IMG/VR virus record: IMGVR_UViG_3300034093_003299
Location: 22,900 to 86,899 of that record
Source: a virus
Taxonomy: Duplodnaviria; Caudoviricetes
Length of the DNA stretch: 64,000 nucleotides
Reading direction: 5' to 3' (one strand)
Below are positions 3,439 through 59,500 of this stretch, piece after piece. A model generated the notes under the pieces. The model saw only the letters and a program-made list of their open reading frames with translations. It made no database searches and was not told the DNA's origin. Both the position numbers and the translations under genes were made by a program. Each line of letters begins with the position of its first letter. Position 1 is the stretch's first letter.

Positions 3439-3466
3439 TTGACTTTCTCGAAAAAGCAGCCACAAT
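3439..3466 (+). promoter_or_regulatory. sigma70-like promoter TTGACT-N16-CACAAT
   Basis: TTGACT at 3439-3444 and CACAAT at 3461-3466, with an in-frame GTG at 3472. Same geometry as the elements at 7412 and 11012. Confidence 0.55.
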
Positions 3467-4236
3467 TAAGCGTGTACTCGGCTGTCCCTTTATTTAAATC
3501 TCATTATAGCCTTGGCAAATCTGTGCTTACCCTGTCTAAAGCAGGGTCTAGCGACCCAGACGAGCCAAGCTCTATTATTGACATCGCGAAGAAGCTTAAT
3601 CTAGACAAAGTTCATCTTGTCGATGACTCTATTTCTGGACTGCTAGAAGCTTACAAGTCTTGCGAGGACGCAAATCTAAATTTAAGATTTGGCTTGCGTT
3701 TAACCGTGTGCGACGATATTGACAACAAGACTGCTGAATCTAGAGAAAAAGAACACAAAGTAATCGTCTTCTTGTCGAGATCAGAAGGGTATCAAAATCT
3801 GATCAAGATATCTACTGTTGCCAGTACAAATGGATTTTACTATTACCCAAGAATAGACTGCAAAACTCTTAAAGAAATTTGGAGCAAGGAAAATCTTTTG
3901 CTTTGCATTCCTTTCTATGATTCTTATGTGTTCAAAAATAATTTGACTTATAGCGTTTGCATTCCTGATTTTAGTTTTTGCGATCCTGTTTATTTTGTAG
4001 AGGATAATAATTTGCCATTTGATGAAATTCTTAAATCGAAAGTCGAAGAAATTGTCTCAGACAAACAATTGGCAGTCAAAACACAGTCTATCTATTATGA
4101 AAACAAAGAAGACTTCTTGGCTTACCTTACGTTTAGGTGCATCTCCGAAAGAACCACTTTGAGCAAACCTAATCTAAATCATTGCTCTTCAAACGAATTC
4201 TGCGCCGAGTCATTCAAGGAAAAATATGGAAAATGA
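3439..4236 (+). CDS. Stand-alone PHP domain of DNA polymerase III alpha (probable true start GTG 3472)
   Basis: FKSHYSLG, helix IIDIAKKLNL, LVDDSISG, HKVIVF...EGYQNLIKIS...GFYYYPRID match the DnaE N-terminal PHP domain. Several metal ligands look lost. The track's TTG start coincides with a -35 box. Confidence 0.85.
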   Translation: MTFSKKQPQLSVYSAVPLFKSHYSLGKSVLTLSKAGSSDPDEPSSIIDIAKKLNLDKVHLVDDSISGLLEAYKSCEDANLNLRFGLRLTVCDDIDNKTAESREKEHKVIVFLSRSEGYQNLIKISTVASTNGFYYYPRIDCKTLKEIWSKENLLLCIPFYDSYVFKNNLTYSVCIPDFSFCDPVYFVEDNNLPFDEILKSKVEEIVSDKQLAVKTQSIYYENKEDFLAYLTFRCISERTTLSKPNLNHCSSNEFCAESFKEKYGK

Positions 4237-8022: not shown

Positions 8023-9881
8023 AAAAGAAAAAAATCCTTTATCACAGCGATTTCGCTTTATCTAAAACTGGCTTTGGTAGAAATACCAAGGCCGTTCTTT
8101 CTTATTTATATAACACAGGAAAGTACGATATAGTTTCTCTCGCAGGCGGGCTTACTAAAAACCATCCAGAATTAGAAAGGACTCCTTGGAAAAGCTATGG
8201 AAGCTATCCCGTCTCTGGCGCGGAATTAAACGATTCAAATTCTAGCACAGACAAAAGCAGGCTTTATTCTTATGGAGCCTTTGAGTTGGACAGAATTGTG
8301 GAGCTAGAAAAGCCCGATGTCTATATCGGAGTGCAAGATTTTTGGGGAATTGATTACGCGATAAATAAACCGTGGTTTAATAAGATAAATCACGCTCTTT
8401 GGATTACATTAGATTCGCTGCCTTTGCTACCATCTGCTGTGGAAGCAGCTCCTAAAATTAAAAACTATTGGGTATGGTCTAGTTTTGCTGAAAAAGAAAT
8501 GCATAAACTCGGGCACGCGCACGTTAAAACTCTGCATGGGGCTATAGATGTTTCTGATTTTAGGCCTTTCTCAGAAGATGAAAAAGCAAGCCTAAGAAAT
8601 AAAAACAAGATATCTTCTGATGATTTTATTATTGGATTTGTTTTTAGAAATCAACTCAGAAAATCTGTACCAAATTTACTTCAAGGCTTTAAGATCTTTA
8701 AAGAAAAAAATCCTGAATGTAAACCAAAGCTTTTATTGCACACTCATTGGAAAGAAGGGTGGGGAATTGAAAAGCTAAGCAAAGAAACTGGAGTTGATAT
8801 TAAAGATATATTAACTACATATATTTGTAAAAAATGCCGCAATTATCATGTAAGCTCATTTTCGGGTCACGAAACAGATTGCTCAAAATGCGGAAGTCAA
8901 TCTTCTTGCGTCACAACCTCGATTAACCTTGGCACTACAGAAAAACAATTAAATGAAATTTATAATTTAATGGATGTTTATTGCCACCCATTCACAAGTG
9001 GTGGTCAAGAAATCCCGATCCAAGAAGCGAAGTTGGCTGGACTAATTACTTTAGTCACTAATTATAGTTGCGGGGAAGAAATGTGTTGCCCTGAGGCTAA
9101 TTCTATCGCTTTAAATTGGAGCGAGTATAGAGAATTCGGAACCGAATTCATTAAAGCGTCTACTTGCCCGATTTCAATATCAGATAATTTAACTTCTGTT
9201 TTTAAGATGCCAGTTAATGAAAAAATTAAAATGGGGAAATTAGCTAGGAAATGGACTATAGATAATTTCTCTGTAGATAGTGTTGGCGGTAAAATAGAAA
9301 AATTTTTAGACTCTTGTGAATTAAAAGAGTATTCTTTAGACAAAGAACCAGGCAAATTGTGCAATCCAAATGCTTTTGTTCCAGAAATAGAAGATAGTGT
9401 GCTTTGGTTGAAGTCTTTATATTCTTTAATACTACTAAGAGACATAGCTGATGGCGATGATGGATTATTACATTGGGTTGATAAAATTAAAAATAATACT
9501 CCACGACGAACTATAGAGCAGTATTTCAGAGAGGTGGCGTACAAGGAAAACGAAAAAAATAAAAAATTTAAAATAGAAGATCTTTTTATTGACACAAAGC
9601 CAGAAGAAAGAATTTTTGTTTCTATCGATTCTTCTTTAGAGAACATTTTCTTGTCTACAAAAATCATCTCGGCAATAAAAGAAAAATATCCAGACAAAAA
9701 GATATTTGTTTCTTCCAACGAGCTTTGCCAATCTGTCTTTTCAGGAAACACTATGATTCATTCTGCTATAATTAAAACATCAGAGTTCGACGATCCGACT
9801 TTCCTTGGCGCTAATTTTTTTCAGAGTTATCGTTTAGACAACTTTTCTATAAACAATAGCCACTCTCTATTAATCAAATGA
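8016..9881 (+). CDS. Glycosyltransferase, GT-B fold (GT4-like), with Zn-ribbon insertion and extra C-terminal domain
   Basis: 621 aa. TGFGR N-terminal loop, VFRNQLRKSVPNLLQGF, and YCHPFTSGGQEIPIQEAKLAG (EGFGLP..EA-like). CKKC...CSKC insert. Confidence 0.85.
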   Translation: MVKKKKILYHSDFALSKTGFGRNTKAVLSYLYNTGKYDIVSLAGGLTKNHPELERTPWKSYGSYPVSGAELNDSNSSTDKSRLYSYGAFELDRIVELEKPDVYIGVQDFWGIDYAINKPWFNKINHALWITLDSLPLLPSAVEAAPKIKNYWVWSSFAEKEMHKLGHAHVKTLHGAIDVSDFRPFSEDEKASLRNKNKISSDDFIIGFVFRNQLRKSVPNLLQGFKIFKEKNPECKPKLLLHTHWKEGWGIEKLSKETGVDIKDILTTYICKKCRNYHVSSFSGHETDCSKCGSQSSCVTTSINLGTTEKQLNEIYNLMDVYCHPFTSGGQEIPIQEAKLAGLITLVTNYSCGEEMCCPEANSIALNWSEYREFGTEFIKASTCPISISDNLTSVFKMPVNEKIKMGKLARKWTIDNFSVDSVGGKIEKFLDSCELKEYSLDKEPGKLCNPNAFVPEIEDSVLWLKSLYSLILLRDIADGDDGLLHWVDKIKNNTPRRTIEQYFREVAYKENEKNKKFKIEDLFIDTKPEERIFVSIDSSLENIFLSTKIISAIKEKYPDKKIFVSSNELCQSVFSGNTMIHSAIIKTSEFDDPTFLGANFFQSYRLDNFSINNSHSLLIK

Positions 9882-11038
9882 ATCTTTTAAAATCTTTTTC
9901 TGTTACAACTGGGCTAGATCCTGGCAATTCATATCTATATGAGAGCCTGTATCCATTAGATTTTGATAAGTATATTGTTTTAGATACGCAGTCAACTAAT
10001 CCAAATTTTCATTATATTTTCTGGTTTAGAGTTATAGAATTGATAGAGCCAATCTTGTCTAATCATAATATAAAGATTGTTCATTTTGTCGAAGACAAGC
10101 GCTATCACTTTAATCACACTTACCTAGATAATTCTAATTCCCTTTCTCAAAGAGCTTATATTTTGAAGAAGGCTTTATTCTTTTGCGGATCTTCGAAATT
10201 GTATTCATTGATGGCTTCTGAATATTCAGTGAATCAATGCTTTATAAAGACCGACTATACTTTGGACAACGTTTTAGCAAAAGAAGATCAGATTATCCAT
10301 TCCAATACTGAAAGAAAGAATTTCTTAAACCCTACAGGAGCAAGAATAAATAATATCCGGCCAGAGGAGATAGCGAAAAAAATCCTTAAGTCTGCTCTTA
10401 ACGAAGACCACTGTTTCGATAATACCATATCTGTAGGAAAAGTTTTCTCCGCTCAGAATTTAGAAGTTATACCCGATTGCGCTTTTAAAATAAACAATAA
10501 TCTAAAAAATGAAATTGTTATCCGAATGGATTATTTGTTTTCTGAAGAAAATTTAGATCTTCTTTTGTCTTACCATTCCTGCTCGGTTGTTACCAACAAA
10601 GCAATCAGTAAAAGTTTATTAATTAAAAGATTAAATAAAATTAAAAAGATATATCTTAAAGTTGAAAAAAATTCAGATCCATCATTCATTGATATCATTG
10701 AAGAGTTAAAAATAGATTATGAAATAATTACTACTTTAAGCAGCGCTGACCTAGAAAGAGAAAAGATGAAATTCTTTGATTATAAAAAAATCAATAGGCT
10801 CAATGTCTTGGGCTTAGAATTTTTAGAAGGATTAGATAAATCAAAAATTTACTTTAAGACAAATAAAATAGTAATAAAAGGCGGGAAAACTTTTGCCAGC
10901 AAATGGCATTCCAGATCGAACATCAATAGCCCGGATGTTCGTAATTCAAGTTTCCAAATACCGCCTGTTATCGATCAGTCTTTTAAAGATGAGGCCGATT
11001 ACTTTTATTTCTTGACTAAAGAGCAATTCGAAGCATAA
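9878..11038 (+). CDS. Glycosyltransferase-like protein (degenerate GT9/heptosyltransferase-like) or GT accessory
   Basis: 386 aa coupled to the GT by an ATGA overlap. Weak GT9-type pattern (KFHYIFWFRVIELI..., KKALFFCGSS, INNIRPEEIAKKI). Confidence 0.4.
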   Translation: MNLLKSFSVTTGLDPGNSYLYESLYPLDFDKYIVLDTQSTNPNFHYIFWFRVIELIEPILSNHNIKIVHFVEDKRYHFNHTYLDNSNSLSQRAYILKKALFFCGSSKLYSLMASEYSVNQCFIKTDYTLDNVLAKEDQIIHSNTERKNFLNPTGARINNIRPEEIAKKILKSALNEDHCFDNTISVGKVFSAQNLEVIPDCAFKINNNLKNEIVIRMDYLFSEENLDLLLSYHSCSVVTNKAISKSLLIKRLNKIKKIYLKVEKNSDPSFIDIIEELKIDYEIITTLSSADLEREKMKFFDYKKINRLNVLGLEFLEGLDKSKIYFKTNKIVIKGGKTFASKWHSRSNINSPDVRNSSFQIPPVIDQSFKDEADYFYFLTKEQFEA

Positions 11039-42190: not shown

Positions 42191-45100
42191 TTATTTCTTG
42201 AAATTCAATGCCGCTGGTCCTAATTTTTTTAACTCTGGGATCTTGTCAAATAATATACTGATAATTCCCTGCATTGCTTCATCAGGAGCATTTTGTATAG
42301 ATGATCTTCCATCAATATTAATAACATTAGAATTAGAAACAGTACTAGAAGACCCGCCCCCGCTCGGGAATGCTGATGTTATTCCAGTCTTTAAAGCTTC
42401 TGTCACAGCATTGGTAAAGTCTCCGGCAGCGAAATTAGGCACAGATCCTTGAGCGTAAGAAGGAGCAAAATTTCTAGGAGCAGACGATCTCATTCTAGAA
42501 TACACATCTCCAGAAGACATCATCCCGTTGCTCATTGCCGCGAAGTTAGGAACTCCGCCGCCAGCTCTTTCCTTCATTACTTGCTCAGCAGGGACTCTTC
42601 TTCTCATGGCTTCTTCTAGAACATCTTTGGGGAAGCCTGTTTCTCTAGTCGCTTGTTCATTTATTTCTGATAAAGATCTGCCTTGAGCAAGCCCTCCTGT
42701 TCTTACATTAGCTTCATCAGCAGTCATAAACCCCCCTCCGAAACCAGCCCTGTCTTGCATGACTCGTTCAGCGCTTTCTCTTCTTCTCGCAGCCTCTTCT
42801 AAAACGTCTTGAGGAAAACTGGGTATTGCCCTGTCTCTGAACTCTATGGCTGATTTAGGAATGACTCGATTAGCTTCTCTGCCAGCTTCTGCTTCTTTTG
42901 CTGTTTTATATATCTCGAAAGACTTAGCGAATCCTGGGTCTTTAAAGTCTGTAGGTTTGAACGATCCAAGACCGTATTGACCCTCTTGCTCTAATAAATA
43001 ATTTGCTTTATCTCTGGTAGTCGTGTAGCCATTAGCTTCCGCATTTTTATCAAAAGACTCAAGGAAAGATTTTCTTAGCTTTGAGCTTCTCGCTTCTTCT
43101 TGCTCGGATGATTCCTTATTTAATCTAGCTGTTTCCGCGTCTCTTATAGCATTACCTCCTGAAATTATACGCGCTATATTAGCTTTACCTTGTTTTTCTA
43201 ATTCCTTTGCGAGTTCTTTTGTTCTTTCTGTCTCTTCGAATTCCTGGCCTCTTTTAGACGCAGACATTTGAAAGTCTCTAGAAACTAATGGATTCCCAGA
43301 TATTTCATTGTACTTATTTAACTCTGCTAGTAGTTCTGCTTTTTTAGCTATTAATTGATTTGATTGAACGGCTTGATTAACAGTCGTTCCGCCTTTTGGT
43401 CTAACTCCAGCCTCGTAACTAGCTTTTGTTGTTCTTAAGCCAGATGCAAAATCGCCTAATTTATTTCCAATGCCTAATTTATTTTCTAAAATATTGCCAG
43501 TTCTATAACCTAAAAGCCCAACCGTGGCTGGCGCGGATCCTATAGCGCCCAATGCTGTTCCTATTGCGTCTCCAATACCAACAGACTCTTCCTCTCCTTT
43601 TCTTCCGAATATATCTTTCCATTCTCTTGCAAGGGTTAAGTCCTTAGTCTCGAAGTCTCCTAATCCGCCTAATATTACTCCCGCTGGACCAGCTACTTTC
43701 CCGACCCCCTTGGACAATCCGGCGAAGCTCGCGGCAGAAGATAACCCAGCCAATGTTGCTTGCCCATATTTCCCTTCTTTAGCTGATGAATAAGACTCAA
43801 GGCCTTGCGCTATTCCGAAACCTACAGATCCCGCTATGCCCAAGCCTTTCAATCCAAATTTTCCTGCTCCTTTAAGTTTATTTAGAACGCCAGAGGTCGC
43901 TGGCGAAGGAGATCCAGGAGGCTTTATTGCGCTAACGGGGCCAGTTGGAGCAGTTCCTGAAGTAGGAGCTGTAGGTTTTTTAGAAAGAAATTTATTTACT
44001 TCTTCAGGAGTGTATTCTTTAAAATTTGTAGCGCCAGCATTTAAATTTATAGTGTCTATATTTTCAATCACGCTTCTTAAATCAGCGCTTCTTCCTTTAG
44101 CGAAAGCTGGCTTCCCATATCTTCTAACCACATCCGATAAGTCAATTTTTTGCCCACTTCTAATTTTATCTGCCGCTTCTTTAGCCAATCGCTTGTTCAG
44201 TTTTGCCTGCTCAGCCTCTGAGAAAGCTTTCATCTCAGCTCTTTGCGGCGCTGTTCTTTCAAAATATCTATTCGCAGCAGCTTGTCTTTCTTGTTGCTGC
44301 GCCAATTTAAAATTCTCTCTGATCGCTTTCTCCAATATACTCTTGCTCTCTTTTTCGCTACCCGCCAAGAAAGCGTCTAAATAAGGATTCTTATTAGGCT
44401 TATTAGGCAGTTTTAAAGAAGGAGTCACTCTTTCAGATTGCATTTTTAGACTCCGAGATCTAATTCGAGTTCTGGTTTCCCCTTGAAGCTCACGGACGCG
44501 ATCGGCTGCCCTGCCCGTTGGCACGTAAGCTTGGTCTCTAAAAGTTACTTGCCCTTTCGGGAGCAAACCTAACGGGGATGTCTTTGTTTTGTTTTTATCA
44601 GAGAAAAGAGTGGATTGGCCCGGGGTAAACACGCCGGCCGCGGGAGTCTCTGTTCTGTTTTTACCAGAGAAAAGAGGTCTAGAAGATTGCCCTCTTGGTA
44701 GCATTTTCAAACCTCCAGATTGTGCGCCAGGTTGAAATTCAGAAGCTTTTTGAGCCAAAAAGGTATTCTGATATGCTGCCATCTGAATGTTTCCAGCTCT
44801 TCGGTTTGATTCAAGCATTCCTCTTTGTATTCTAACTTGCTCTTCTTGAGTTAACTGAAGCGCTTCTTGTAGTCCTGGTCTTTTTAAATAACTAGAAAAT
44901 CCAGAAATAGAACCCTGTGCTAATTGACCTTTTTTCGCTTCTTTAAGAAGCTTGCCCTGCTCTATATTTGCTTTTAATGTTTGCGCGGCAGTCATTTTTT
45001 GTGGCTTAACAGTAGGATTTACATTACCCATGCTTGGCCTGTTCCCGTATGGATAAATCTTGTTAACTAATCTTTCTGGGTAGAAAGGCATCGTTTTTTG

Positions 45101-48100
45101 AGATACTCCTAGAATCGGAGCTGGATCAGAAGGAATAACTGGCTTAGGGGCATCCGCTCTTGGGCCATATATTCTTTCTAGTAATTCTTCCATTCTAGAT
45201 TTAGCGAAATTAGGAACTTTTCCTTTCTTCATCCACTCTGGACTTGGATCAATTAAATCATTTCCTAATCTACTATTATAAGCGTCAGAAGGCTTTGCAA
45301 TATTACTTTTTTCTGGTTTCGCATATAATGAATTATACATGCGGTCAGCAAGATAATCAGTTAAGCCAGCCTTTTCACTCAAAGGCTTAACTATATATTC
45401 TCCTATATCTAATCCTAATCCAGCAGCTCCCAATCCCGCTTTTTTAGCGACATTTTTTGTTAAAAATTTAGCTGCATCTAAAGCTGGCCCAGCTAAATCC
45501 GTAGCTATTCCACCAGCATTTCCCTCTTGAACATTACCAATCAAAGATTGAGCATCATCTGCATTTGTGAACATATTACGAGCTTCATCTAAATTATCAC
45601 GAACTTTATCTAAATTACTCGCGTTCATCCAAGATGGCATTTTCATCCAAGATGGCATTGCGTAATTTGGAACAAATCCACTAGATCTCATTCCTAAACT
45701 TCTTAAGCCATTTTTTTCATCAATGCTATTTGTTACTCCAAAGCCTTGAGGGTTAGAAGCGGTTACTAAATTTGGGCTTCTTTCTAAGTTAATAGATGCC
45801 ATTGCAAAGTTAGGAACTCCCATTATTCCTCTCTTAGCTAGGGCCATTTTTTCTCTAGTTATTGCATCGTTTACAGGATTAGCAAAATTCTTTACAGGTG
45901 GACCGTCGCTCGCTTGAGCAGCGCCAGATTCAGATGCGTTACCCTTTACTTGGCTTGCGACAAGATTTACTACGTCAGCTCGTATGCCTTTATCTCCGAA
46001 AGTGGATTTTAAACTAGCTTCAAAACCGCTAACTAAACCTTGCCCCAGTGCTGTCGCTTGTTCTGTGATTTGTTGCTTTATAGGTACAAGAAGATCTTCC
46101 ACTCGCTTGAGCTCCGAGTCATCTGCTTTGGCTTGCTTAGCAGATTGGACTCCAAATTTTTCGTAATCTTGCATCGAGCTTTTCACTTCTCCTGGCACTT
46201 CTGGACTGCCAAATAAAGCATCGGCTTTCAAACCAGCAGATTCAAAAAGATATTTTGAATCAAAAGCTTTGTTTCTTAATAATCCAGATGTTTGCCCAAG
46301 GCCCATCATTTGAGCCATGTTAGCTCTCTTTAGCAAATCTCTTTGCATGTCCATAGCGTTGAGGCCAGTAAGCTCTCTCTTTACTCCTGATATGTCTGCT
46401 GGTTCTTTACCGTTTTTGGTTTGAAGAAGTCCAGGATATTTTTGCATTGTTTCTGTTAAGAAATCAGTAGCGCCTCCCACCTGAGTTCTTCTAGATCCAA
46501 ATAAAGTTCCTAATTGATAAGTAAGAGGCCCGCGTAACCCAGCAGACATAGACTCTGCTCTCATTTGTGGATTTATAGAAGTCTTAATATCTCCACCAAA
46601 AGCCAATTTCTCTTGTAAAGCTAAAAATTTAAGTTGTATGTTTTTAGTCTCATTAGCTATAGTTCCAGCTTTTTGTATTTCTCTTGTTTGTAAAGAGTTA
46701 AATTGTATTAGTTTTTCTATGCCAGCTACTTGAGCTTTGCTAAGACCAGGAAGTTGTTTTATTGACTCTAAGTCTCTTCCTGTTGCTACACCGGGAGTTT
46801 CTATTGCATTAAGCTTTGCTTGTACTTGAGACGGCAATCCTTTGGTAAATTCTTTGTCAGAAAGTTGCGCTAATAATGAATTTTGAAAAGATACCGAAGA
46901 TTGTGTAGTTTTAATTGCTAAAGAAGCATCAGAAGCGGCTGAAATTCCTGCTCTTTTGCTAAAGCCGCCTGCAAACGAAGCTAATTCTGGCAATTGGTCT
47001 TCTAAAGCTTTACTTATGCTTGATCTTATTTCTCTGCGGTCTTCGGTTTGTTGTTTTTTTCTTGTTAGCGGTTTTGAAACATCAATTATCGCTGCTTCTT
47101 GATTAGAAGAAATTTCGTTTAATTTTTGAGTTAATTTAAGCGCGTCTAAGAAGCCCTTTTTTAATTCATCAGTTTTAAATACATTAGAAAATTCTTCTAC
47201 ATTTAATCCTCCTTTAGAAAGAACTTCAGAAAAATTTGCTGGACCAGCTTTAGACAAGTCTTGCTTTAATAAATCTTGATTTCCCGAATTGATTACAGAT
47301 CTGAAAAATGAATCAAGTTCTTTTGGTGCGTCTTTGCCAAGAATGGTGCCTTTGCTTGAAAACTTTAAAGCTTCTTGTCTTACGGATTGTATTCTTTGGC
47401 TTTCTTTAGCGTTATCTTCAAGGATAGCTTGTTTACCAGCTAGGGTTGTCTCTGAAGCTAATTTAGATACAAGCCCTGGATTAGATCCCTTAACTTTAGA
47501 CAGTAAATCTGCTATACTCGCGGACAACTTTAATATTTGTTTAGGATCAGCTTTTGGATCTCTATAAGCGTCATCTAATTTAGCTAAAGAATTGGAAAGC
47601 TCTAATGTGTTCTCTGTTAAGTCTTGAAATGTTTTTTTAGAACGGTCCAAAGCTTGTTCGAATTTTTTTGTGTTTATTCTATTACCTAAGTCTGCTCCGC
47701 CTTGGAATCCCGCGAGGGTTCCTGCTGTTAATTGCCCTACGCCAGACGCAACCGCTATGCCTCTCTGCGTTTTAGAACCTTTTCCAAAAATTCCTTTGCC
47801 AATATTTTTTAGTCCAATAGCCCCAGGAATAGCAACATTAGCGAATGTCGAAGCTCTGGGGTCAATCAATTCGTTTTCAGCTAATGTATCTAAAGTGCTA
47901 CTAGCGGCAGAGCCGGCAAACAATTCAACACCCGCTGAGATAGGGTTCGCTAGATTATTTCTGCCCTTTAGCAATCCTAATCTTGACAAAACAGTAACCA
48001 GCTGTCTGCTAGGCAGAGCAAAATTTGGTACATCTTTTAGTCCATTAGGCTCGTCTATTTTGTTTGTAACTGCTATAGGATTTCCGCCTCTATCAAAATG

Positions 48101-51100
48101 AGCCATTATCTGAGAAGCCGGGACGCCTCTTTGTGCTAATGCTGTTTTTTCTCTACTTACTGCATCTGATAAGCCAGAAAAATTAGGAATATATCCTCCA
48201 GAGAAGCTATCTTTGTATTCAGCTGGGATATTTTTGATACCAGCAAATTGAGCTAATGTAAAACGATGATTTCCATCTTTAACTTCAGAATAAGAGTCGG
48301 GATAATTTGTTATTTCAATTGGCTCTTGTTTTAAGAAGTTGTATAATTTTAATTTATTTTCTTTTGAGGATAACGCGTCTGTTAAACCTTTTTTATTTAT
48401 ATTATCTAACTCAATCGGGATACCAATACTATTTAATATCTTATGTAAACCTGGGGCCGAAGCTTTATTAGCTTGACCAACATAGCCGCCCATTTTTTTA
48501 ATTTTTTCTGCATTGAAAGTTGATGCAAAATTAGGAATATATCCTTGCGATAATCCTAATAGCTTAGATGCCGCATCTCCTTTTTCGAACCTAAATCCTA
48601 TTGGTAATTTTGCGACTCTTACAGTCCCAAAAAGTTTTTTTGTTTCTTTATCAGATAAGCCTCCTGCTGTCTGAAAAAGTTTTTGTGCATTAACTGGCTC
48701 TATTCTAGACAAAGCTTTTCCATGTATCGCGGCAGGATAAATAGAATGCTGCGAAGACGAAGCTTGAGTTAAGCTTTCTGATCCAAATTCAGCAAGTCTA
48801 CTTATAGAAGATCCGAAATTTTTATTTTTTTGATAAAATTTTAGTATATCAGGTTCAATAAATGGAGAAACAATTTCTCTCATCTTATCGGGCCCTAAAG
48901 TTTTATAAAATTTATCAAACAGAGAAGTTAAGTTAGCAGTAGAAGTGCCTTCTTGAATGAATCTCGAAGTTAACTTAGGATAAGAAGCCTTCAATGCCTC
49001 TACAACCATTTTATTTCCAGCTAAACCTTGTATTAACCCTAAATCTCCTCCCATTCTTCCAGCTTGCGCCCCGAAAATAACTCTAGATCCAGATTCAACA
49101 AAAGGCTTTATGAGTTTAATCATATCATTCGTTTTTTCTTTATTCAAGAAAGCCGCTCCCATCCCGGGTCTTGCGAATGGATATTCAGGCCCGCCTCCGT
49201 GTTCGCCTGATAATGTATCGTATAAAGAAGAAACAAATAGATTAGAACCTTGCCCTACTATTCTTGGATTAGCGAAGTTAGGAATACGCCCAGAGGCGAA
49301 CGAATCGTTTCTTGTGCGTGAACCGACTTGCGTTCTCGCCCACGCCCATGTCCTGGCTTGTAATTCTCTGACTGGTACGCCTAGCTCTTTTGCTGCTGCG
49401 CCGTATTCCTTTACAAGTTTATTATAATATTTATATCCTCCAGCTGATTGACTGAAAACCTTTGATTTTTGCTTTTCTGATACTGCTCCTCTGTCATATT
49501 TTTCTTTTAAAGCTCCACCATTTCTTACGTATATAGCCCAACTGTCCATTACAGATGGAGTATTTAGTGGATTTTTATATTTACCAAATCCAGAAAAGTT
49601 TTTAGATAACAATAGACTCTGAGCAAAATTTTGAGTCTTAGCGCCTTTCCCCAATATAGACATTAACTCTTCCGTAGACCCAGAAGAAGCTAGCATTTTT
49701 TTTACTTTTTCTATGTTTTCAGGAAGCAATACTAAATCATCATAAGGTTGATTATTGGCAATCCTCTGTATGCCTTTTCTAGCAGCAGAATCCGCAGTGT
49801 TACCTGATAAGGCAGCCAAACCATAAGCTAATTTTTCTAAACTAGCGCCAGAAGAAGCGGATAAGTTTTTTAATTCAGAATTAACATTCGGATAATAGTT
49901 TTCATTTTTTTGCGCTGCGTTAAATCTTATTGGATCTTTTTCGGTTAAAGATGCTTTATAAGAATCAATTATATTTTGAATAAATTTAGATTTAGCAAAA
50001 TTAGGAACATATCCTTGGTTTAAAAAAGTAGGCCCATAAGCAAATTCATCTTTATACCCTAATTTAGATAAGCCTTTAGTTCTTTTTTTAGCCAAATCAG
50101 CATTCAATCCGAAAACCCCAGTATCAACGATATTGATTTCTCCGCCTTTTTTTGCTATAGAAGTTAAAATTCTATCCATTTGAGCTTCGCTCTCTTCGAA
50201 GTCTTTTGATTCTATTGATTTGATTAGTTTACCATAATTTCTTCTGAGAACTTTAGATAAAATAGTCTCAGATTTTTCATTAAACATTAAATTATCATAC
50301 TTGCCAACCAAATCGTCAGCTTTCATTCTGCCGCCCATATCTATTTGCATTTGGGCTCTACCAGCTATTAAATTGTAAAACTTATCAAAGCCTTGTCTTT
50401 CTCCAGTGTATGGATCCAAATCTAAGGCTAAATCTTTGCCTGTTTTGCCAGCTATTACTTTTTTATAAATAGAACTTTTTTGTATAGATTTTTCTAAAGA
50501 TCCATAAATTTCAGGAGTCTTAAATATTGGATTTAATTGTCCAGCGCCGATCATCTGCCCCAACTCTTGAGCGGCTACATATTCATTGGCAACGTTGGTT
50601 TTAGTTCTATTTGACTTTGGATCAAAAAAATCTTTCCTTCCCAAAGAACCTCTTAGCCCGAAAAATTCTCCGAAAAATCCTCCTCCTAAACGTTGTTTTG
50701 CAAAATTAGGAATATATCCTTTAGCGTAAGAAAAGTCTTCTCTATTTCCAGATATCGCTTCTTTTATAAAAACAGTATTTCCAATTTGGATAGCTTGCTG
50801 GCCGCCTACTATTGGTTTTTTTGTTTTTCTATCGTAATAATAAGAGTGTCTGTCTGGGTTGTATCCTACTTGAGTCCAATTTTTTAAATCTTTAGGCAAA
50901 GATTGATCTTTAGATAAAGTACCTGATATTTTTAATAATGGACTTTTTTCTTTTCCTGCTCCTATGTTTAAGGAGGCCCTTTCTAAGCCAGCAGACTTAC
51001 CCATTGATGGATTATCAAATGCAACAAATGAATCGTAAGATTTAAATCCTCCAGAGCTTTCTGTTTTCACTACTCCCACTCCTTTTCTTGTCATTGAAGG

Positions 51101-53314
51101 AACATCTTGGCGCACAGTTATTTCGCTTCCCGCAGGCAGCTCTGATAATTTATTTGCTCTTTTTGCTTGCTCTTTATCTAATGCGTTTTTAATCAAAGCC
51201 TGACTAGGTAAATCTTTTACGGAAGAAGGAGCTATTACTTCTCTTATCGGAATGTCTCTTTCTATTAAAGCATCTAGTAAATCTCTATCTATTTTTTCTC
51301 CAGTCTGGAGTTTTTGCAACATTGCTCTGGCTTCTGGAGAATACATGCGGCCAGCTTTGATTGCAGCTTTGCTTTGCGGATATTTTATCAAAAAGTCTTT
51401 GGGCATTTTATTGCTCTTAGACCAAGCGAAATTAGGAATGTATCCTTTAGACATTCTTGGTATTTCATCAAGATTTCTGTAATTAGGAATTATTGCTGTT
51501 TCTCCAGTTCCTCCATAATTTGGAATTATTTTTTCTTTATCGTTTACAATTACAGGGCCAGTTTTGCCTTGGATTGTGGCTTGAACTACTTCCGCTTTCG
51601 GATTAACAGCGCCCATTCTTCTAGCTGTGTTTTCTTCTAATTGGAAAGCCGCTGCTTCTACGCCCGTGTCAGGAATATAGCCCTCAGCGAATAGTCTTCC
51701 TATTCCTTTTCTAGAGGCTTTCTGGGCTGTGCTTACGGTAGAAGTGACTCTTCCCGTTATTCTAGATTGAGTTAAAAGAGATCTATTTTGTTCTTGAATT
51801 AGCCTCAATACCTCTGCTTCGGCTTGCGCTAAATTCATTTTGCGACTTATGACGCTATCAATTATCGCAGGATTCTCTCTTAAGGTATCGTTAATTCTTT
51901 TTTGTATTTGTAATTCTTTTTCAGAAGTAAACATTTCGGAGCTAGCTCTCCCCAACTGCTTTAATGAGCTCACTCCGAATTTAGCAAATTTTGCAGCCAG
52001 CAACCCTCCTGTAGCGGCTAAAATTGGTAAGCCACCTGCCCCTAAAGTTTTTCCTAATATCGAAGCCGCGCCTTTGCGTAGCCCATCGGCAAATTTTTTG
52101 CCAGAGTCTTCTCCTTGACCAAATAAATCAGAATTTGGACTTACTAATTTTAAAAGAACCTCTGAAACTGTGCTACCCAATTTAACTAATGGATCTAGCA
52201 AAGATGATCCTAGCGCAGCGGCAGCTTCTTGAGCGGATGTTTTAGTCTGCTGCAATACAGCAGACAGGCTTTTATTTAATTCTTCGTTCTTCTTTTTCGC
52301 TTCGTCTGTCGCGGCGCTGGAAACTCTTAAAGCATCAGCATAAACGCTATTAGAACTAGAAAGATCTTTAATTAAAGCATTTACTTGGTTAATCTGGTAA
52401 ATGCCACCAACTAGTTCTGCTGTTCTTGATTTTTCTGTTTGACTTAAATTTTTTGTAGCGTCAGAATAATTTTTTAAGATACTTATGCCATCTAATAGAT
52501 ATCCATTTTGGTCTTTAACTGCGACTCCTAACATCTCAAGCTGACTCAATACTTCTGGTCTTTGTAAGCGAGTAAATATTGTTTTTAAAGCGTTACCAAT
52601 TACAGCGCCGCCGCGTCCAGTTATTTGCTGTGCAGCAGTGACTGTCGCTATTAGCTTATCGATGCTTAGACCGCTTTCCTCAGCAGAGCTACCCACGCGC
52701 GAGAGGGCTTCGTTCAACTGAGCGGAACTAACAGCAAATCTTGTATCAACAGCGATTAACTTGTTAGTAATATCTTCCGAAGTCAAAGCTTCTTTATTAA
52801 AACTGTTAATTGCTGTAGTTATACCATTTACAGCTTGTGCATAACTAATACCAGCTATTCTTGCTAGGGTTAGGGCACTTCCTGTTCTTTTTAATATTTC
52901 ATTAGCAGAAAGACCTTGTCTTGCGAACTCTTTCGCGGCTTCGGCAGCGGCTTCGAATGGAACTGCCGAGTTTTTGGCTACTTTAAATAAAGACTGAGAA
53001 AAACCTTCTAATTCATTTCTTGATTTGCCTAGATATGTATTTAATTCTACTAATTGTTTATCTACTTCTATAGTAGCTTTAGCGCCTTCTCTAATAGCTT
53101 GAGAAACTTTATAAATAGCTCCAGCAGTTAAACCGAAAGCTGTAACGCGAGCAGTGGCTGCTGATAATGATTTGGTGAACTCCGCTGCGTCTCCGCTGAT
53201 TCTTCCAAGAGGCTGAGCAAATTTTGCAGAACCGATAGCTGCCGTGAAGCTATTAAAAGACGCTTGCGCCGGAGCAGTATTTAAAGTAAGATTGGCTTGA
53301 ATATTCGTTGGCAT
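42191..53314 (-). CDS. Tail tape measure protein (PhageMin_Tail/TP901-type N-terminus) carrying internal enzyme-like cassettes
   Basis: 3707 aa. The N-terminal core (EAAKEFARQGLS..E...AL.LA...V.GIT.AINSF...NKL.AVD..FAVSS..L.EAL.R.GS.A...G.......G..IGNALKTIF.RL) is a classic TMP. Gene lies after the major tail protein and chaperones. AAGGA Shine-Dalgarno upstream. Confidence 0.92.
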   Translation of the reverse strand: MPTNIQANLTLNTAPAQASFNSFTAAIGSAKFAQPLGRISGDAAEFTKSLSAATARVTAFGLTAGAIYKVSQAIREGAKATIEVDKQLVELNTYLGKSRNELEGFSQSLFKVAKNSAVPFEAAAEAAKEFARQGLSANEILKRTGSALTLARIAGISYAQAVNGITTAINSFNKEALTSEDITNKLIAVDTRFAVSSAQLNEALSRVGSSAEESGLSIDKLIATVTAAQQITGRGGAVIGNALKTIFTRLQRPEVLSQLEMLGVAVKDQNGYLLDGISILKNYSDATKNLSQTEKSRTAELVGGIYQINQVNALIKDLSSSNSVYADALRVSSAATDEAKKKNEELNKSLSAVLQQTKTSAQEAAAALGSSLLDPLVKLGSTVSEVLLKLVSPNSDLFGQGEDSGKKFADGLRKGAASILGKTLGAGGLPILAATGGLLAAKFAKFGVSSLKQLGRASSEMFTSEKELQIQKRINDTLRENPAIIDSVISRKMNLAQAEAEVLRLIQEQNRSLLTQSRITGRVTSTVSTAQKASRKGIGRLFAEGYIPDTGVEAAAFQLEENTARRMGAVNPKAEVVQATIQGKTGPVIVNDKEKIIPNYGGTGETAIIPNYRNLDEIPRMSKGYIPNFAWSKSNKMPKDFLIKYPQSKAAIKAGRMYSPEARAMLQKLQTGEKIDRDLLDALIERDIPIREVIAPSSVKDLPSQALIKNALDKEQAKRANKLSELPAGSEITVRQDVPSMTRKGVGVVKTESSGGFKSYDSFVAFDNPSMGKSAGLERASLNIGAGKEKSPLLKISGTLSKDQSLPKDLKNWTQVGYNPDRHSYYYDRKTKKPIVGGQQAIQIGNTVFIKEAISGNREDFSYAKGYIPNFAKQRLGGGFFGEFFGLRGSLGRKDFFDPKSNRTKTNVANEYVAAQELGQMIGAGQLNPIFKTPEIYGSLEKSIQKSSIYKKVIAGKTGKDLALDLDPYTGERQGFDKFYNLIAGRAQMQIDMGGRMKADDLVGKYDNLMFNEKSETILSKVLRRNYGKLIKSIESKDFEESEAQMDRILTSIAKKGGEINIVDTGVFGLNADLAKKRTKGLSKLGYKDEFAYGPTFLNQGYVPNFAKSKFIQNIIDSYKASLTEKDPIRFNAAQKNENYYPNVNSELKNLSASSGASLEKLAYGLAALSGNTADSAARKGIQRIANNQPYDDLVLLPENIEKVKKMLASSGSTEELMSILGKGAKTQNFAQSLLLSKNFSGFGKYKNPLNTPSVMDSWAIYVRNGGALKEKYDRGAVSEKQKSKVFSQSAGGYKYYNKLVKEYGAAAKELGVPVRELQARTWAWARTQVGSRTRNDSFASGRIPNFANPRIVGQGSNLFVSSLYDTLSGEHGGGPEYPFARPGMGAAFLNKEKTNDMIKLIKPFVESGSRVIFGAQAGRMGGDLGLIQGLAGNKMVVEALKASYPKLTSRFIQEGTSTANLTSLFDKFYKTLGPDKMREIVSPFIEPDILKFYQKNKNFGSSISRLAEFGSESLTQASSSQHSIYPAAIHGKALSRIEPVNAQKLFQTAGGLSDKETKKLFGTVRVAKLPIGFRFEKGDAASKLLGLSQGYIPNFASTFNAEKIKKMGGYVGQANKASAPGLHKILNSIGIPIELDNINKKGLTDALSSKENKLKLYNFLKQEPIEITNYPDSYSEVKDGNHRFTLAQFAGIKNIPAEYKDSFSGGYIPNFSGLSDAVSREKTALAQRGVPASQIMAHFDRGGNPIAVTNKIDEPNGLKDVPNFALPSRQLVTVLSRLGLLKGRNNLANPISAGVELFAGSAASSTLDTLAENELIDPRASTFANVAIPGAIGLKNIGKGIFGKGSKTQRGIAVASGVGQLTAGTLAGFQGGADLGNRINTKKFEQALDRSKKTFQDLTENTLELSNSLAKLDDAYRDPKADPKQILKLSASIADLLSKVKGSNPGLVSKLASETTLAGKQAILEDNAKESQRIQSVRQEALKFSSKGTILGKDAPKELDSFFRSVINSGNQDLLKQDLSKAGPANFSEVLSKGGLNVEEFSNVFKTDELKKGFLDALKLTQKLNEISSNQEAAIIDVSKPLTRKKQQTEDRREIRSSISKALEDQLPELASFAGGFSKRAGISAASDASLAIKTTQSSVSFQNSLLAQLSDKEFTKGLPSQVQAKLNAIETPGVATGRDLESIKQLPGLSKAQVAGIEKLIQFNSLQTREIQKAGTIANETKNIQLKFLALQEKLAFGGDIKTSINPQMRAESMSAGLRGPLTYQLGTLFGSRRTQVGGATDFLTETMQKYPGLLQTKNGKEPADISGVKRELTGLNAMDMQRDLLKRANMAQMMGLGQTSGLLRNKAFDSKYLFESAGLKADALFGSPEVPGEVKSSMQDYEKFGVQSAKQAKADDSELKRVEDLLVPIKQQITEQATALGQGLVSGFEASLKSTFGDKGIRADVVNLVASQVKGNASESGAAQASDGPPVKNFANPVNDAITREKMALAKRGIMGVPNFAMASINLERSPNLVTASNPQGFGVTNSIDEKNGLRSLGMRSSGFVPNYAMPSWMKMPSWMNASNLDKVRDNLDEARNMFTNADDAQSLIGNVQEGNAGGIATDLAGPALDAAKFLTKNVAKKAGLGAAGLGLDIGEYIVKPLSEKAGLTDYLADRMYNSLYAKPEKSNIAKPSDAYNSRLGNDLIDPSPEWMKKGKVPNFAKSRMEELLERIYGPRADAPKPVIPSDPAPILGVSQKTMPFYPERLVNKIYPYGNRPSMGNVNPTVKPQKMTAAQTLKANIEQGKLLKEAKKGQLAQGSISGFSSYLKRPGLQEALQLTQEEQVRIQRGMLESNRRAGNIQMAAYQNTFLAQKASEFQPGAQSGGLKMLPRGQSSRPLFSGKNRTETPAAGVFTPGQSTLFSDKNKTKTSPLGLLPKGQVTFRDQAYVPTGRAADRVRELQGETRTRIRSRSLKMQSERVTPSLKLPNKPNKNPYLDAFLAGSEKESKSILEKAIRENFKLAQQQERQAAANRYFERTAPQRAEMKAFSEAEQAKLNKRLAKEAADKIRSGQKIDLSDVVRRYGKPAFAKGRSADLRSVIENIDTINLNAGATNFKEYTPEEVNKFLSKKPTAPTSGTAPTGPVSAIKPPGSPSPATSGVLNKLKGAGKFGLKGLGIAGSVGFGIAQGLESYSSAKEGKYGQATLAGLSSAASFAGLSKGVGKVAGPAGVILGGLGDFETKDLTLAREWKDIFGRKGEEESVGIGDAIGTALGAIGSAPATVGLLGYRTGNILENKLGIGNKLGDFASGLRTTKASYEAGVRPKGGTTVNQAVQSNQLIAKKAELLAELNKYNEISGNPLVSRDFQMSASKRGQEFEETERTKELAKELEKQGKANIARIISGGNAIRDAETARLNKESSEQEEARSSKLRKSFLESFDKNAEANGYTTTRDKANYLLEQEGQYGLGSFKPTDFKDPGFAKSFEIYKTAKEAEAGREANRVIPKSAIEFRDRAIPSFPQDVLEEAARRRESAERVMQDRAGFGGGFMTADEANVRTGGLAQGRSLSEINEQATRETGFPKDVLEEAMRRRVPAEQVMKERAGGGVPNFAAMSNGMMSSGDVYSRMRSSAPRNFAPSYAQGSVPNFAAGDFTNAVTEALKTGITSAFPSGGGSSSTVSNSNVINIDGRSSIQNAPDEAMQGIISILFDKIPELKKLGPAALNFKK
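42429..51445 (-). repeat. Dispersed in-frame repeat G-x-[IV]-P-N-[FY]-[AS] (about 12 copies) in the TMP
   Basis: + strand copies of about gcaaaattaggaatatatcc start at 51426, 50700, 49995, 49272, 48525, 48177, 48018, 45804, 45660, 45204, 42540 and 42429. Weaker xxNFA variants occur near 45882 and 42465. Confidence 0.9.
45624..45659. repeat. Perfect 18-bp tandem duplication (MPSWMK-MPSWMN)
   Basis: ttcatccaagatggcatt occurs twice, at 45624-45641 and 45642-45659. Confidence 0.95.
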
Positions 53315-53333: not shown

Positions 53334-53340
53334 ATTACAC
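53334..53340 (-). promoter_or_regulatory. GTGTAAT late-promoter-like motif
   Basis: attacac on the + strand. Lies 19 nt upstream of the TMP ATG with AAGGA in between. Confidence 0.5.
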
Positions 53341-54335
53341 TATAATCCATGCATTTTGATAAAGTCTTCTGTTGTAAGCTTGTTGCCTTTTTTAGCTGCA
53401 ATTTCATTTAAGGTCACAGCCTTTCCTCCGGCCATTTTTTCCAGCTCTTCTCTTGTTGCTCCTGTATATCCAACTCCGCTAGATTGACCAGATGAGTTCC
53501 CAGTTCTTGCTGAGCTTTCTACAGATTCGTACCATTCTACCATCTTGTCTGGATCTGAAACGACATCTGAAGGAGGATTACTCTGGGCTTGGCTTTCTAT
53601 CAAAGATTTAAAATATCTAGCTTGAGAAAATAAATTTACTTGCAATATTGTCAAATCTTTAGTATATTTACCAAAAAAACTATAAGCACTATTATCACAC
53701 AAAGCAAAAAGACTCATAAAAAAAGAAGAAGCGCAGATTCTTTTAATATTTTCGTAATCGAATCTAGTGTAAAAATTTCCCAATATGTCTACCAAATTCG
53801 ACAACTCTTTCGGCGACAAATCGTCAAACTCTTCTTGAGTAAAAAATTTCTCTTTAAAATCCTGGTCTTTGTAGAACGATAAATGAATAATTAACTCATT
53901 AAGTTTTTTGCCGGTATAGTCTTCAGCGCAAAATCCTAATAGGTCAGCTTTCTCATTTTCTAAATTTAAGAGAGATTTTTTTAGGCCTTTGATCTTGTTC
54001 TTGGCTTCATTGATTTGCCTTTTTATTATAAGATTTCTTATTAGCATTTCAGTGTCAGAAATCTGCTTGGAAATTTGATCTATATCTTTTTCTTTTTCGT
54101 TAGACCAAAGTTGATTTTTTATTAAAAAACTTAGCTTCTCTTCTTTCTCTTCTAGTCCTTTTTCCAAGGCTTCTCCGCTGAAAAATCTTCTGTTTTTATC
54201 TAAATCGCCATTCTCTAATTCTGTGAAATGTTTAATGAAAATAGGCTTTTCCAAGAATTTATCCTCAGAAAAGCCCACTGCTATTTCTTTATACAAGCCT
54301 TTATAAAAACTTATTTTTTCATAAAGATCACTCAC
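53340..54335 (-). CDS. Tail assembly chaperone-like protein
   Basis: 331 aa (GTG start) directly upstream of the TMP. Central coiled coil. Paralogous to 54342-55055. Confidence 0.6.
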   Translation of the reverse strand: MSDLYEKISFYKGLYKEIAVGFSEDKFLEKPIFIKHFTELENGDLDKNRRFFSGEALEKGLEEKEEKLSFLIKNQLWSNEKEKDIDQISKQISDTEMLIRNLIIKRQINEAKNKIKGLKKSLLNLENEKADLLGFCAEDYTGKKLNELIIHLSFYKDQDFKEKFFTQEEFDDLSPKELSNLVDILGNFYTRFDYENIKRICASSFFMSLFALCDNSAYSFFGKYTKDLTILQVNLFSQARYFKSLIESQAQSNPPSDVVSDPDKMVEWYESVESSARTGNSSGQSSGVGYTGATREELEKMAGGKAVTLNEIAAKKGNKLTTEDFIKMHGL

Positions 54336-54341
54336 AGATTA

Positions 54342-55055
54342 TTAACCAATCAGGTCTTCTTTTGGCACCCCAGAGTTTAGTTGGCCGATAAGGAAACCAC
54401 CCTTCTCTACAACACTACTCAAGAATTCGTCTTCCGACTCTTCTATCTGAGAAAGCTTTTGAAGTTTCTGTTCAAATGATCCATCTCCAAACAAACAAGT
54501 TTGAGAACCTTCTTCTCCTTGATAAAGTAAATTCAATACAAACCACAAATTCAAAGCGTCAGAAGCTCTCTTTTCTGCCGTGTTATCAAATAGAGAGTTT
54601 TGCACGTTTTCATAATCGAAAATCTTTTGGCGCAAGATCTGATATTCGGGATTCAGATTGCCATTCTTCAATTCTCTTTCTGCTTCGCTAAGCGTAGAAT
54701 CTTGCTTTGTTTTTTCTAAATCTATTTCTATAGCTATAGCTTTGGAGTAATTTTCTGCGTGGGCCTTCTTCTCGTCTTCAGAAGCTAAAATTCCGTCTTG
54801 CTGGAATTTGCGTAAAAGGTAATTTTTAGTAACTAGCCCAAGCTTAATTCCTTCAGAAACCTTTACGGCGTAGAAGATGCTTGCTTCGTCTTGTATTTTA
54901 CGGTTTGGTTTTAAAATATAAAACTTCTGAGGGACTTTCTTCTCTACTTCTTTAGTGATCTGAAGCTCTTCTCCAGCTTCGTTTACTTCTGTTGTAGTTT
55001 CTTTTACCTTTTGAGTTTTTTGTACTTCAAAATTATGTAGCCATTTTTCTTTCAT
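54342..55055 (-). CDS. Tail assembly chaperone-like protein
   Basis: 237 aa between the major tail gene and the TMP. Acidic and helical/coiled-coil. Confidence 0.6.
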   Translation of the reverse strand: MKEKWLHNFEVQKTQKVKETTTEVNEAGEELQITKEVEKKVPQKFYILKPNRKIQDEASIFYAVKVSEGIKLGLVTKNYLLRKFQQDGILASEDEKKAHAENYSKAIAIEIDLEKTKQDSTLSEAERELKNGNLNPEYQILRQKIFDYENVQNSLFDNTAEKRASDALNLWFVLNLLYQGEEGSQTCLFGDGSFEQKLQKLSQIEESEDEFLSSVVEKGGFLIGQLNSGVPKEDLIG

Positions 55056-58618: not shown

Positions 58619-59500
58619 TCAAATTATAACATTCAAATGAGCAACATTACTCAAGACTTCCCCAGCAGCATTATATACTTTAACCGTATAATCTCCGGCT
58701 TGATTCTCTTGCAAATCTGATAAATTATATCCTGCCCAGACAACTCCAGAAATCTCAGAACCATTAAGCATCCATTGGTAAGATGGAGTCGGGTATCCCG
58801 TCGCCATTACACTAAATATAAATGAAGATCCAGTAACGGCTTCTCCTCCTACTGGTTGATCTACTATCACTGGAACAACTGGCGGAGCAACAGAAATTTG
58901 GCATCCAGAACTCGTAACTGAGCCCAAAGAGTTTGATACTACAACATCATAGAGCCCAGCTTGATCTAGTTGTATGTTTAAAATTTGTAATCCGTCTCCA
59001 TTCACTCCTGATAGATTTTCAGAATCTTTTCTCCATTGATAATTTAGAGGTTGCCCAGCGGCCATTAATGACACATAGATATTCTGCCCAGACCATAAAG
59101 AAATGCCAGATTGAGGCTGTATTGTAATGGACGGGGCAATGACTGGAAATATATCAGCAGGCCAAGGAGACGGAGGAGTTACAACCGGAGGATTAATTTG
59201 GTTGACTATTTGTTGAATTGATGAGTTTTCAAATCTTTCTTTATCTCCAGATTGAAAAACCGAATAAACCCAATTAAACACTTGATTTTCCTGCAAGTCA
59301 AGGTAAGGGGTAACTGTCCCAGAATACGCTGGAATACTAGTTACGCTATAAACTCTACCGTAGTATGGCCCGCCGCTTACGCCATTATAATAAGACAAGC
59401 AGTCCCAGTGGACATTAAACACATAATCGGTTGCGCCGCTGAACTCAGGGTAGCAGTCCATTGCTGTTACTTTCCACTTTAGTTGCATGTCTTCGCTCAT
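58619..59500 (-). CDS. Virion surface protein with two immunoglobulin (I-set-like) domains
   Basis: 293 aa. PSITIQP...LNYQWRKD...GLYDVVVSNSLGSVTS and PVIVDQP...YQWMLNG...GDYTVKVYNAAGEVLS. The N-terminal domain is a common small phage domain ending PPVVTPPSPW. Confidence 0.8.
   Translation of the reverse strand: MSEDMQLKWKVTAMDCYPEFSGATDYVFNVHWDCLSYYNGVSGGPYYGRVYSVTSIPAYSGTVTPYLDLQENQVFNWVYSVFQSGDKERFENSSIQQIVNQINPPVVTPPSPWPADIFPVIAPSITIQPQSGISLWSGQNIYVSLMAAGQPLNYQWRKDSENLSGVNGDGLQILNIQLDQAGLYDVVVSNSLGSVTSSGCQISVAPPVVPVIVDQPVGGEAVTGSSFIFSVMATGYPTPSYQWMLNGSEISGVVWAGYNLSDLQENQAGDYTVKVYNAAGEVLSNVAHLNVII

Follow-up and report, generated by a model that had tools for sequence, protein, structure and literature searches.

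A short repeated peptide borders exchangeable cassettes in the giant tape measure protein of an uncultured tailed phage

Introduction

A stretch of 64,000 nucleotides from the IMG/VR virus record IMGVR_UViG_3300034093_003299 (Duplodnaviria; Caudoviricetes; positions 22,900 to 86,899), referred to here as the window, was found to contain a giant open reading frame (ORF) in which a short peptide of the form G-x-[IV]-P-N-F-A is repeated. The locus raises the question of why one peptide should recur throughout a single gene, and an earlier note, made from the sequence alone, had named a processing site, a folding or threading signal and a recombination site as possible answers.

The ORF encodes 3707 amino acids (window 42191-53314, minus strand; label P0001; from the ORF list and its translation). 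It was matched by TIGR01760 at residues 68-389 (126 bits, cut-off 28.8), by PF10145 (93 bits, cut-off 33.2) and, in the N-terminal region, by phrog_4211 (E = 7e-46), and on these profile matches it is a tape measure protein (TMP) of the TP901 family. The TP901-type core was found to span the first ~450 residues, and the sole Pfam match beyond it was DUF7178 at residues 1134-1328. The window itself was phage-like and AT-rich (GC 32-41%) and contained many very large structural ORFs.

Occurrence of the motif in the window

The strict pattern [IV]PN[FY][AS] was found 12 times in a six-frame scan of the 64 kb, always in the TMP ORF and in its reading frame and nowhere else, which bears out the earlier estimate of about 12 copies in one gene and none in the other ORFs. 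Only 0.011 strict copies were expected from the composition of the TMP; over 20000 shuffles the mean was 0.012, and no shuffle contained more than 1. Additional copies were present as IIPNY at residues 597 and 609, together with four decayed copies (GYIPD at residue 545, EIPRM at 617, VKNFA at 2474 and PRNFA at 3613). The outermost strict copies were located at 42428-42442 and 51425-51445, in agreement with the previously noted span of 42429-51445. The 22-mers at 48525 and 50700 were again found to be identical, with the copies at 49995, 48177 and 51426 differing from them by 1, 2 and 2 bases, respectively, and the residues upstream of the motif were often small or aromatic (e.g. YAKG, FASG and FSGG), as had been described.

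Occurrence of the motif in related proteins

When TMP residues 590-1800 were used as the query, 60 giant proteins were returned, and the TMPs among these contained 3-18 strict copies each, most of them 9-18. The family logo, drawn from 350 unique contexts, was [AS]-x-G-[YF]-[VI]-P-N-[FY]-[AS], in which [YF] was present at 63% and [VI] at 97%, the Pro being fixed by the search pattern. The peptide was kept in relatives with flanks only about 31-36% identical.

At least 120 IMG/VR stretches were matched by a degenerate DNA pattern for GYIPNFA, and about 113 of the matched stretches listed lay in giant ORFs with 2-8 copies. Where the N-terminus lay within the locus, most of the giant ORFs showed a TMP domain 33-91% (mostly 35-50%) identical to that of the window. 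The motif density in 120 loci was 2.18 per 1000 amino acids in the TMP ORFs versus 0.04 in all other ORFs. A profile of the mini-module, a short folded unit flanked by motif copies, matched the representatives of 1116 clusters formed at 50% identity (874 at E<=1e-10), and most of these proteins were 2000-5000 amino acids long. The number of motif copies was found to increase with protein length (r = 0.77).

In distant relatives the motif was found to be decayed to G-[YF]-[IV]-P-x-[FL], with S, A, D or G in place of the Asn (PSF, PAF, PDF, PGF and PDT) and with PNL also present. The core that remained constant across the variants was a hydrophobic residue and Pro ([IV]-P) preceded by an aromatic residue, and the G-aromatic-[IV]-P half survived where the N-F half decayed.

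Among 50,697 deposited phage records searched with tblastn, no match was found for the cassette regions (residues 624-1765 and 2705-3707) or for the mini-module of a relative; the N-terminal TMP domain alone found deposited TMPs, which were distant at about 25% identity. No published description of the motif or of a multi-cassette TMP array was found in the literature.

The mini-module was also present on seven contigs (L121-L127) of metagenome-assembled genomes binned to several phyla, namely Flavobacterium, Verrucomicrobiales, Puniceicoccaceae, Halobacteriovorax and Cellvibrionales bins. They are likely to be phage contigs that were caught up in the binning, and they give a weak host hint, all of the bins being diderm.

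Recombination junctions at the motif

Breakpoints at the protein level were taken from the ends of high-scoring segment pairs (HSPs), a test independent of the motif-based segmentation. Among 260 BLASTP HSP ends from 59 relatives, 54% were located 10 amino acids or fewer from a motif, versus 7.6% for random positions. At the DNA level the gene was compared with those of three relatives whose backbones were 95-99% identical (L128, which is identical to L130, and L129 and L131), and sharp junctions were found at gene nucleotides 2615, 3307, 3324, 4031, 4788, 5118, 7644 and 8114. All eight of these distinct junctions fell within 3 nucleotides of a 21-nucleotide motif window and involved seven motif copies, with motif windows covering about 3.4% of the gene. 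In the alignments, identity ended after GC-x AAA and restarted at TTCCTAAC..., or broke after the Val codon, and matches of 24-27 nucleotides were present between different motif positions across genomes. The earlier suggestion of a cassette-shuffling site, together with the proposed comparison of breakpoints in related genomes, was thus sustained at both levels. The motif copies, mini-modules and cassettes (numbered by family) were located as follows.

42191..53314, minus strand: giant tape measure protein gene P0001 (ORF list, TIGR01760, PF10145 and phrog_4211)
51428..51682, minus strand: motif cluster following the N-terminal TMP domain, residues 545-629, containing GYIPD, a mini-module-like stretch, IIPNY, IIPNY, EIPRM and GYIPNF; its paralogues in relatives are segment families 16 and 8
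48179..51427, minus strand: cassette array of 13 (242 amino acids), 9 (235), 14 (241, DUF7178), 6 (249) and 11 (116), from segmentation and clustering
50699..50725, minus strand: motif copy at residue 868, AKGYIPNFA, joining cassettes 13 and 9; DNA junction with L129 and L131 at gene nucleotide 2615
49994..50020, minus strand: motif copy at residue 1103, NQGYVPNFA, joining cassettes 9 and 14; DNA junctions at gene nucleotides 3307 (L131) and 3324 (L128)
49271..49297, minus strand: motif copy at residue 1344, ASGRIPNFA, joining cassettes 14 (DUF7178) and 6; DNA junction at gene nucleotide 4031 (L128)
48524..48550, minus strand: motif copy at residue 1593, SQGYIPNFA, joining cassettes 6 and 11; DNA junction at gene nucleotide 4788 (L131)
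48017..48202, minus strand: mini-module M2, residues 1705-1766, with motif, helix, beta-hairpin and motif (alignment A1 and AlphaFold2 model); DNA junction at gene nucleotide 5118
45659..45895, minus strand: mini-module M3, residues 2474-2552, with VKNFA, VPNFA and VPNYA (alignment A1); DNA junction at gene nucleotide 7644 (L128)
45203..45229, minus strand: motif copy at residue 2700, KKGKVPNFA, joining cassette 17 and scaffold segment 12; DNA junction at gene nucleotide 8114 (L129 and L131)
42428..42565, minus strand: C-terminal motif pair at residues 3588 and 3625, which enclose the decayed PRNFA and are followed by the conserved 79-residue C-terminus (motif scan and segmentation)

A hypervariable stretch was observed in the 888-residue scaffold segment (window 42542-45205, minus strand), at about gene nucleotides 8500-10018, where relatives otherwise 95-99% identical diverged or fell to 83-94% identity. 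The sole off-motif junctions were found in this part, and the hypervariability of the segment is a second, motif-independent mode of variation.

Modular architecture of the tape measure protein

Cutting 46 proteins at the motif gave 510 segments in 115 clusters, many of which were of exactly fixed length (e.g. 183, 248, 103, 116 and 37 amino acids). From its N-terminus, the scaffold common to these proteins was found to contain the TMP domain, the motif cluster, a variable cassette array, M2 (~50 amino acids) and a ~750-residue helical segment with Gly-rich hydrophobic stretches, followed by M3, optional cassettes, a segment of 800-1200 amino acids, a unit of 37 and the C-terminus of 79. Relatives differed from one another by whole cassettes that were gained, lost, replaced, duplicated or reordered; for instance, family 13 was first among the cassettes of the window TMP and last in P0016 and P0018. 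The motif was found to mark all the boundaries of scaffold, mini-module and cargo cassettes, the exchanged units being bounded by it.

Families 13 and 14 were observed in permuted order among the relatives, and family 20 was tandemly duplicated in P0006 and P0043. Permuted order and tandem duplicates together imply crossovers between non-allelic motif copies.

The TMP was found to contain at least five unrelated cassettes of fixed length. A placement was obtained only for the DUF7178 cassette and for a domain that also occurs in polyvalent proteins, and no enzymatic activity could be ascribed to the cassettes. Cassette 14 was matched by DUF7178 and phrog_3842, and nothing besides these two was found when the single cassettes and alignment A1 were compared with Pfam, PHROGs and NCBIfam. 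No usable match to cassettes 9 and 13 was returned by the ESM Atlas. The shorter cassette homologues among the matches listed were nine proteins (eight of 769-2000 amino acids and one 55-residue fragment from a 687-nucleotide contig), none of them plausible as a stand-alone cassette gene. The TMP gene was never split at the motif among the 120 IMG/VR loci.

Cassette 13 (window 50702-51427, minus strand) was observed to share 41-48% identity with a domain that is part of giant proteins other than TMPs; ART-PolyVal (PF18760) is present in some of these proteins.

Glycine- and alanine-rich hydrophobic stretches were seen by eye in the translation of both long scaffold segments (window 45806-48019 and 42542-45205, minus strand); from their composition they would fit the parts of a TMP expected to insert into the host membrane.

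Codon usage in the motif

The motif copies of the window were found to share codons at 56.5% against 43% from gene usage (P=0.004), the drivers being ATT, GTT, CCT and GGA. When 268 copies from 112 ORFs were taken together, all synonymous codons were near the ORF background, with Pro encoded by CCA 114, CCT 116, CCC 22 and CCG 16 times, and ATA and GGC were mildly avoided. Codon sharing at the motif was 55.6% within ORFs against 48.7% expected, and 49.3% between unrelated ORFs against 45.5% expected; since the unrelated pairs exceed expectation too, only ~3 points can be ascribed to similarity within a gene. The comparison of synonymous sites with codon usage that the earlier note had proposed therefore found these sites almost free, and its caution that AT-biased codon choice might explain the DNA identity was largely right, motif codon use being near background and the excess sharing small.

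Because the codons are near background and the peptide is kept at about 31-36% flank identity, selection is judged from the sequences to act on the peptide and not on the bases. By the same comparison, the microhomology of the motif is taken as a by-product that recombination can use and not as a selected property.

Predicted structure of the motif and the mini-module

The motif was found to flank a mini-module with invariant A, R-E, N-P, V-T-N, D-E and G residues (alignment A1). In the AlphaFold2 model the mini-module core was a helix and a beta-hairpin with a predicted local distance difference test (pLDDT) score of 74-79, and both motif copies had pLDDT <50; the motif is accordingly predicted to be a short, intrinsically unstructured peptide. 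No match was found for alignment A1 against PDB sequences, and nothing significant was returned by Foldseek with the mini-module model. A possible resemblance of the mini-module to the AbrB/SpoVT hairpin ('DE-x-G-x-x-IP') was left unsupported by this null Foldseek result.

Genes flanking the tape measure protein gene

The genes directly upstream of the TMP gene were located as follows.

53340..55055, minus strand: pair of conserved genes (331 and 237 amino acids) immediately upstream, with homologues that adjoin TMPs bearing the motif in 63 and 52 loci

These two are candidate tail-assembly partners. They belong to an upstream block of 296, 376, 237 and 331 amino acids that was kept beside the TMP in most of the related loci, and none of the four proteins was matched by a named tail family in Pfam, PHROGs or NCBIfam. 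The 331-residue protein (window 53340-54335, minus strand) was observed beside motif-bearing TMPs in 63 loci at 25-55% identity. Its AlphaFold2 model was confident (pLDDT 84) and all-alpha with one hairpin; no protease fold and no PDB match were found for it, and Foldseek and VIA-align gave only generic helical-hairpin matches. A role as a protease or as a known chaperone found no support, the model being all-alpha and matched by no family or solved fold; the protein may be an unusual tail-assembly chaperone.

The ORF directly downstream of the TMP gene was of structural size (630 amino acids) and conserved only in close relatives. A protein of 293 amino acids in the virion region (window 58619-59500, minus strand) was found to contain a DUF7936 N-terminal domain followed by two Ig-like domains (Ig_3 and I-set), and it probably decorates the virion or sits on the tail surface.

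Discussion

The motif is read here as a linear junction peptide under protein-level selection which serves as an in-frame crossover point and would also act as a docking handle. A probability of about 0.5 is given to this reading, the docking part being held less firmly than the rest. A constant peptide written in AT-biased codons would give 15-27 nucleotides of identity at each boundary, and this identity would offer in-frame crossover points, non-allelic copies included, without disturbing function. Flanking each cassette, the peptide would be recognised repeatedly by one partner, which may be a tail-assembly factor of the phage or else a chaperone or prolyl isomerase of the host periplasm, similar to SurA or FkpA, that would attend to the unfolded TMP as it is ejected. 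The motif copies were often closely spaced: 44% of 1096 inter-motif spacings were <75 amino acids, many copies were 12-53 amino acids apart, and five copies were present inside 85 amino acids at residues 545-630. By analogy, such close tandem copies of a hydrophobic linear peptide would resemble a multivalent docking site.

A possible partner is suggested by WEYIPNV, a phage-display peptide that binds the P1 domain of SurA with a dissociation constant of 1-14 uM; the reported consensus is Ar-X-Ar-X-Pro, in which Ar is an aromatic residue (PMC7195389, PMC11401910). The Y-I-P-N core of WEYIPNV is also that of the most frequent form of the motif, and the aromatic-nonpolar-Pro core of the consensus is present in the motif as [YF]-[IV]-P. 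Injection by HK97 requires the periplasmic peptidyl-prolyl isomerase FkpA, which offers a parallel of a periplasmic chaperone or isomerase needed for TMP-dependent injection. Taken alone, SurA has only a slim chance of being the partner, as the match is partial and was picked out from among many known motifs. The broader notion of a portable handle, by which each copy would recruit a SurA-like chaperone or prolyl isomerase of the host periplasm, or a dedicated phage factor, so that the flanked cassette stays unfolded while it is stored in the tail tube and passes through it, and would at the same time supply crossover points, is put forward tentatively and is unlikely.

Several points weigh against a docking junction peptide. 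The low pLDDT of the motif may reflect missing oligomeric context and not true disorder. The junctions could also arise from crossovers in identical flanks, with cassette content alone differing, and since such crossovers would give the same junctions, crossover mediated by the motif is inferred only. No binding partner was identified, and the model of the 331-residue neighbour has no recognisable peptide-binding fold. As to SurA, the first aromatic residue of its consensus, two residues upstream, is absent, position -3 of the motif being mostly S, G or K; the consensus leaves the near-invariant N-F-[AS] unexplained; and WEYIPNV was selected on the SurA of E. coli.

The same peptide could instead be a processing site at which a phage, host or autocatalytic Asn-dependent cut frees the cassettes after tail assembly or ejection, and this is rather unlikely. 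It would suit the presence of the motif at every cassette boundary, its predicted disorder, the small residues ([AS]-x-G) ahead of the aromatic position, the near-invariant Asn of the close family and the proposal that polyvalent proteins are processed into domains (PMC5512222). However, Pfam, PHROGs and NCBIfam gave no peptidase domain for the TMP or for 10 flanking ORFs, a part of the genome, and at relaxed E-values neither the whole TMP nor its cassettes were matched by an embedded peptidase family (zincin-like MPTase, assemblin-like or LonC); the 331-residue neighbour is all-alpha without a protease fold. Cuts at copies 12-53 amino acids apart would give tiny peptides and fragment the ruler, and in the 120 loci the gene was never divided at the motif. 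Distant relatives have S, A, D or G at the Asn position, a poor fit to Asn cyclisation, although such activity could still occur at the copies that keep the Asn. In Thermus phage P23-45, moreover, an enzyme fused to the TMP is proposed to act uncleaved (PMC10770324). The balance leans towards docking over a cut site because 44% of the spacings are <75 amino acids and a TMP-fused enzyme proposed to act uncleaved is known.

It is quite improbable that the motif is a structural joint between modules, either a hinge or a short inter-chain strand by which the three TMP chains would be held in register or fixed to the wall of the tube. The hydrophobic-Pro core does not vary, with [IV]-P in all variants, the motif stands on both sides of a folded mini-module, and its copies cluster at scaffold transitions, all of which would agree with a joint; but the monomer model shows no structure for the motif, the mini-module has no fold match, and the spacing varies so widely that there is no register with the tube rings. 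A pure DNA recombination signal encoding a functionless peptide is very improbable, despite the junctions at the motif, the 22-27 nucleotides of identity shared by different copies and the slightly raised codon sharing within a gene. Such a signal would fix bases and not residues, whereas the synonymous codons are near background (CCA 114 and CCT 116 of 268) and the peptide is retained down to about 31-36% identity.

Other motif classes were tried and rejected. The sequence N-F-A is not the N-x-S/T of an N-glycosylation sequon, Pro occupies the position that needs an aromatic residue in the beta-signal of outer membrane proteins, and no match was found to 2A-like ribosome skipping, clamp-binding or TonB-box motifs.

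Comparison with known systems

Conserved motifs that border swappable segments are present in polymorphic toxins (VENN in CdiA and PxxxxDPxGL in Rhs proteins) and in the tail-fibre adhesins of T-even phages. The borders in polymorphic toxins coincide with recombination joints, and their conserved Asn or Asp invites a reading as autocleavage; usually a single border precedes the toxin, which is C-terminal and has its immunity gene next to it. The motif described here is alike in being a short conserved peptide at the border of an exchangeable module and in coinciding with recombination joints, but 12-23 copies of it fence many internal cassettes of a virion protein, and no sequence similarity was seen.

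The polyvalent proteins of phages and conjugative elements carry disparate domains in one injected polypeptide (Iyer et al. 2017, PMC5512222). The window TMP resembles them in having unrelated cassettes strung in one polypeptide and in the homology of cassette 13 at 41-48% identity. They differ in that they are not TMPs, in that the motif is wholly absent from them (0 strict copies in the non-TMP polyvalent proteins with cassette 13) and in their proposed processing by embedded zincin-like peptidases.

The protein gp96 of P23-45 is a TMP of 5002 amino acids with a fused virion RNA polymerase, which has been proposed to be active while still fused (PMC10770324). It is likewise a giant TMP bearing an enzyme delivered through the tail. 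It differs in carrying one enzyme, at the N-terminus, with no cassette array or repeated junction peptide reported, and no sequence relationship to the cassette region of the window was found by tblastn among deposited phages.

Conclusions

TMPs with one fused enzyme were already known, and no paper was found that describes a swappable cassette array fenced by one peptide in more than 1000 protein clusters of uncultured aquatic phages. If true, the reading of the motif as a junction peptide would provide a natural example of a conserved peptide that creates its own recombination hotspots. If the peptide makes cassettes compatible with the tail, it would set a rule by which phages load injected proteins and exchange them, and would supply a sequence tag for hundreds of candidate injected effectors in metagenomes. 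If the handle reading is true, these proteins would represent a modular cargo-injection system in tailed phages.

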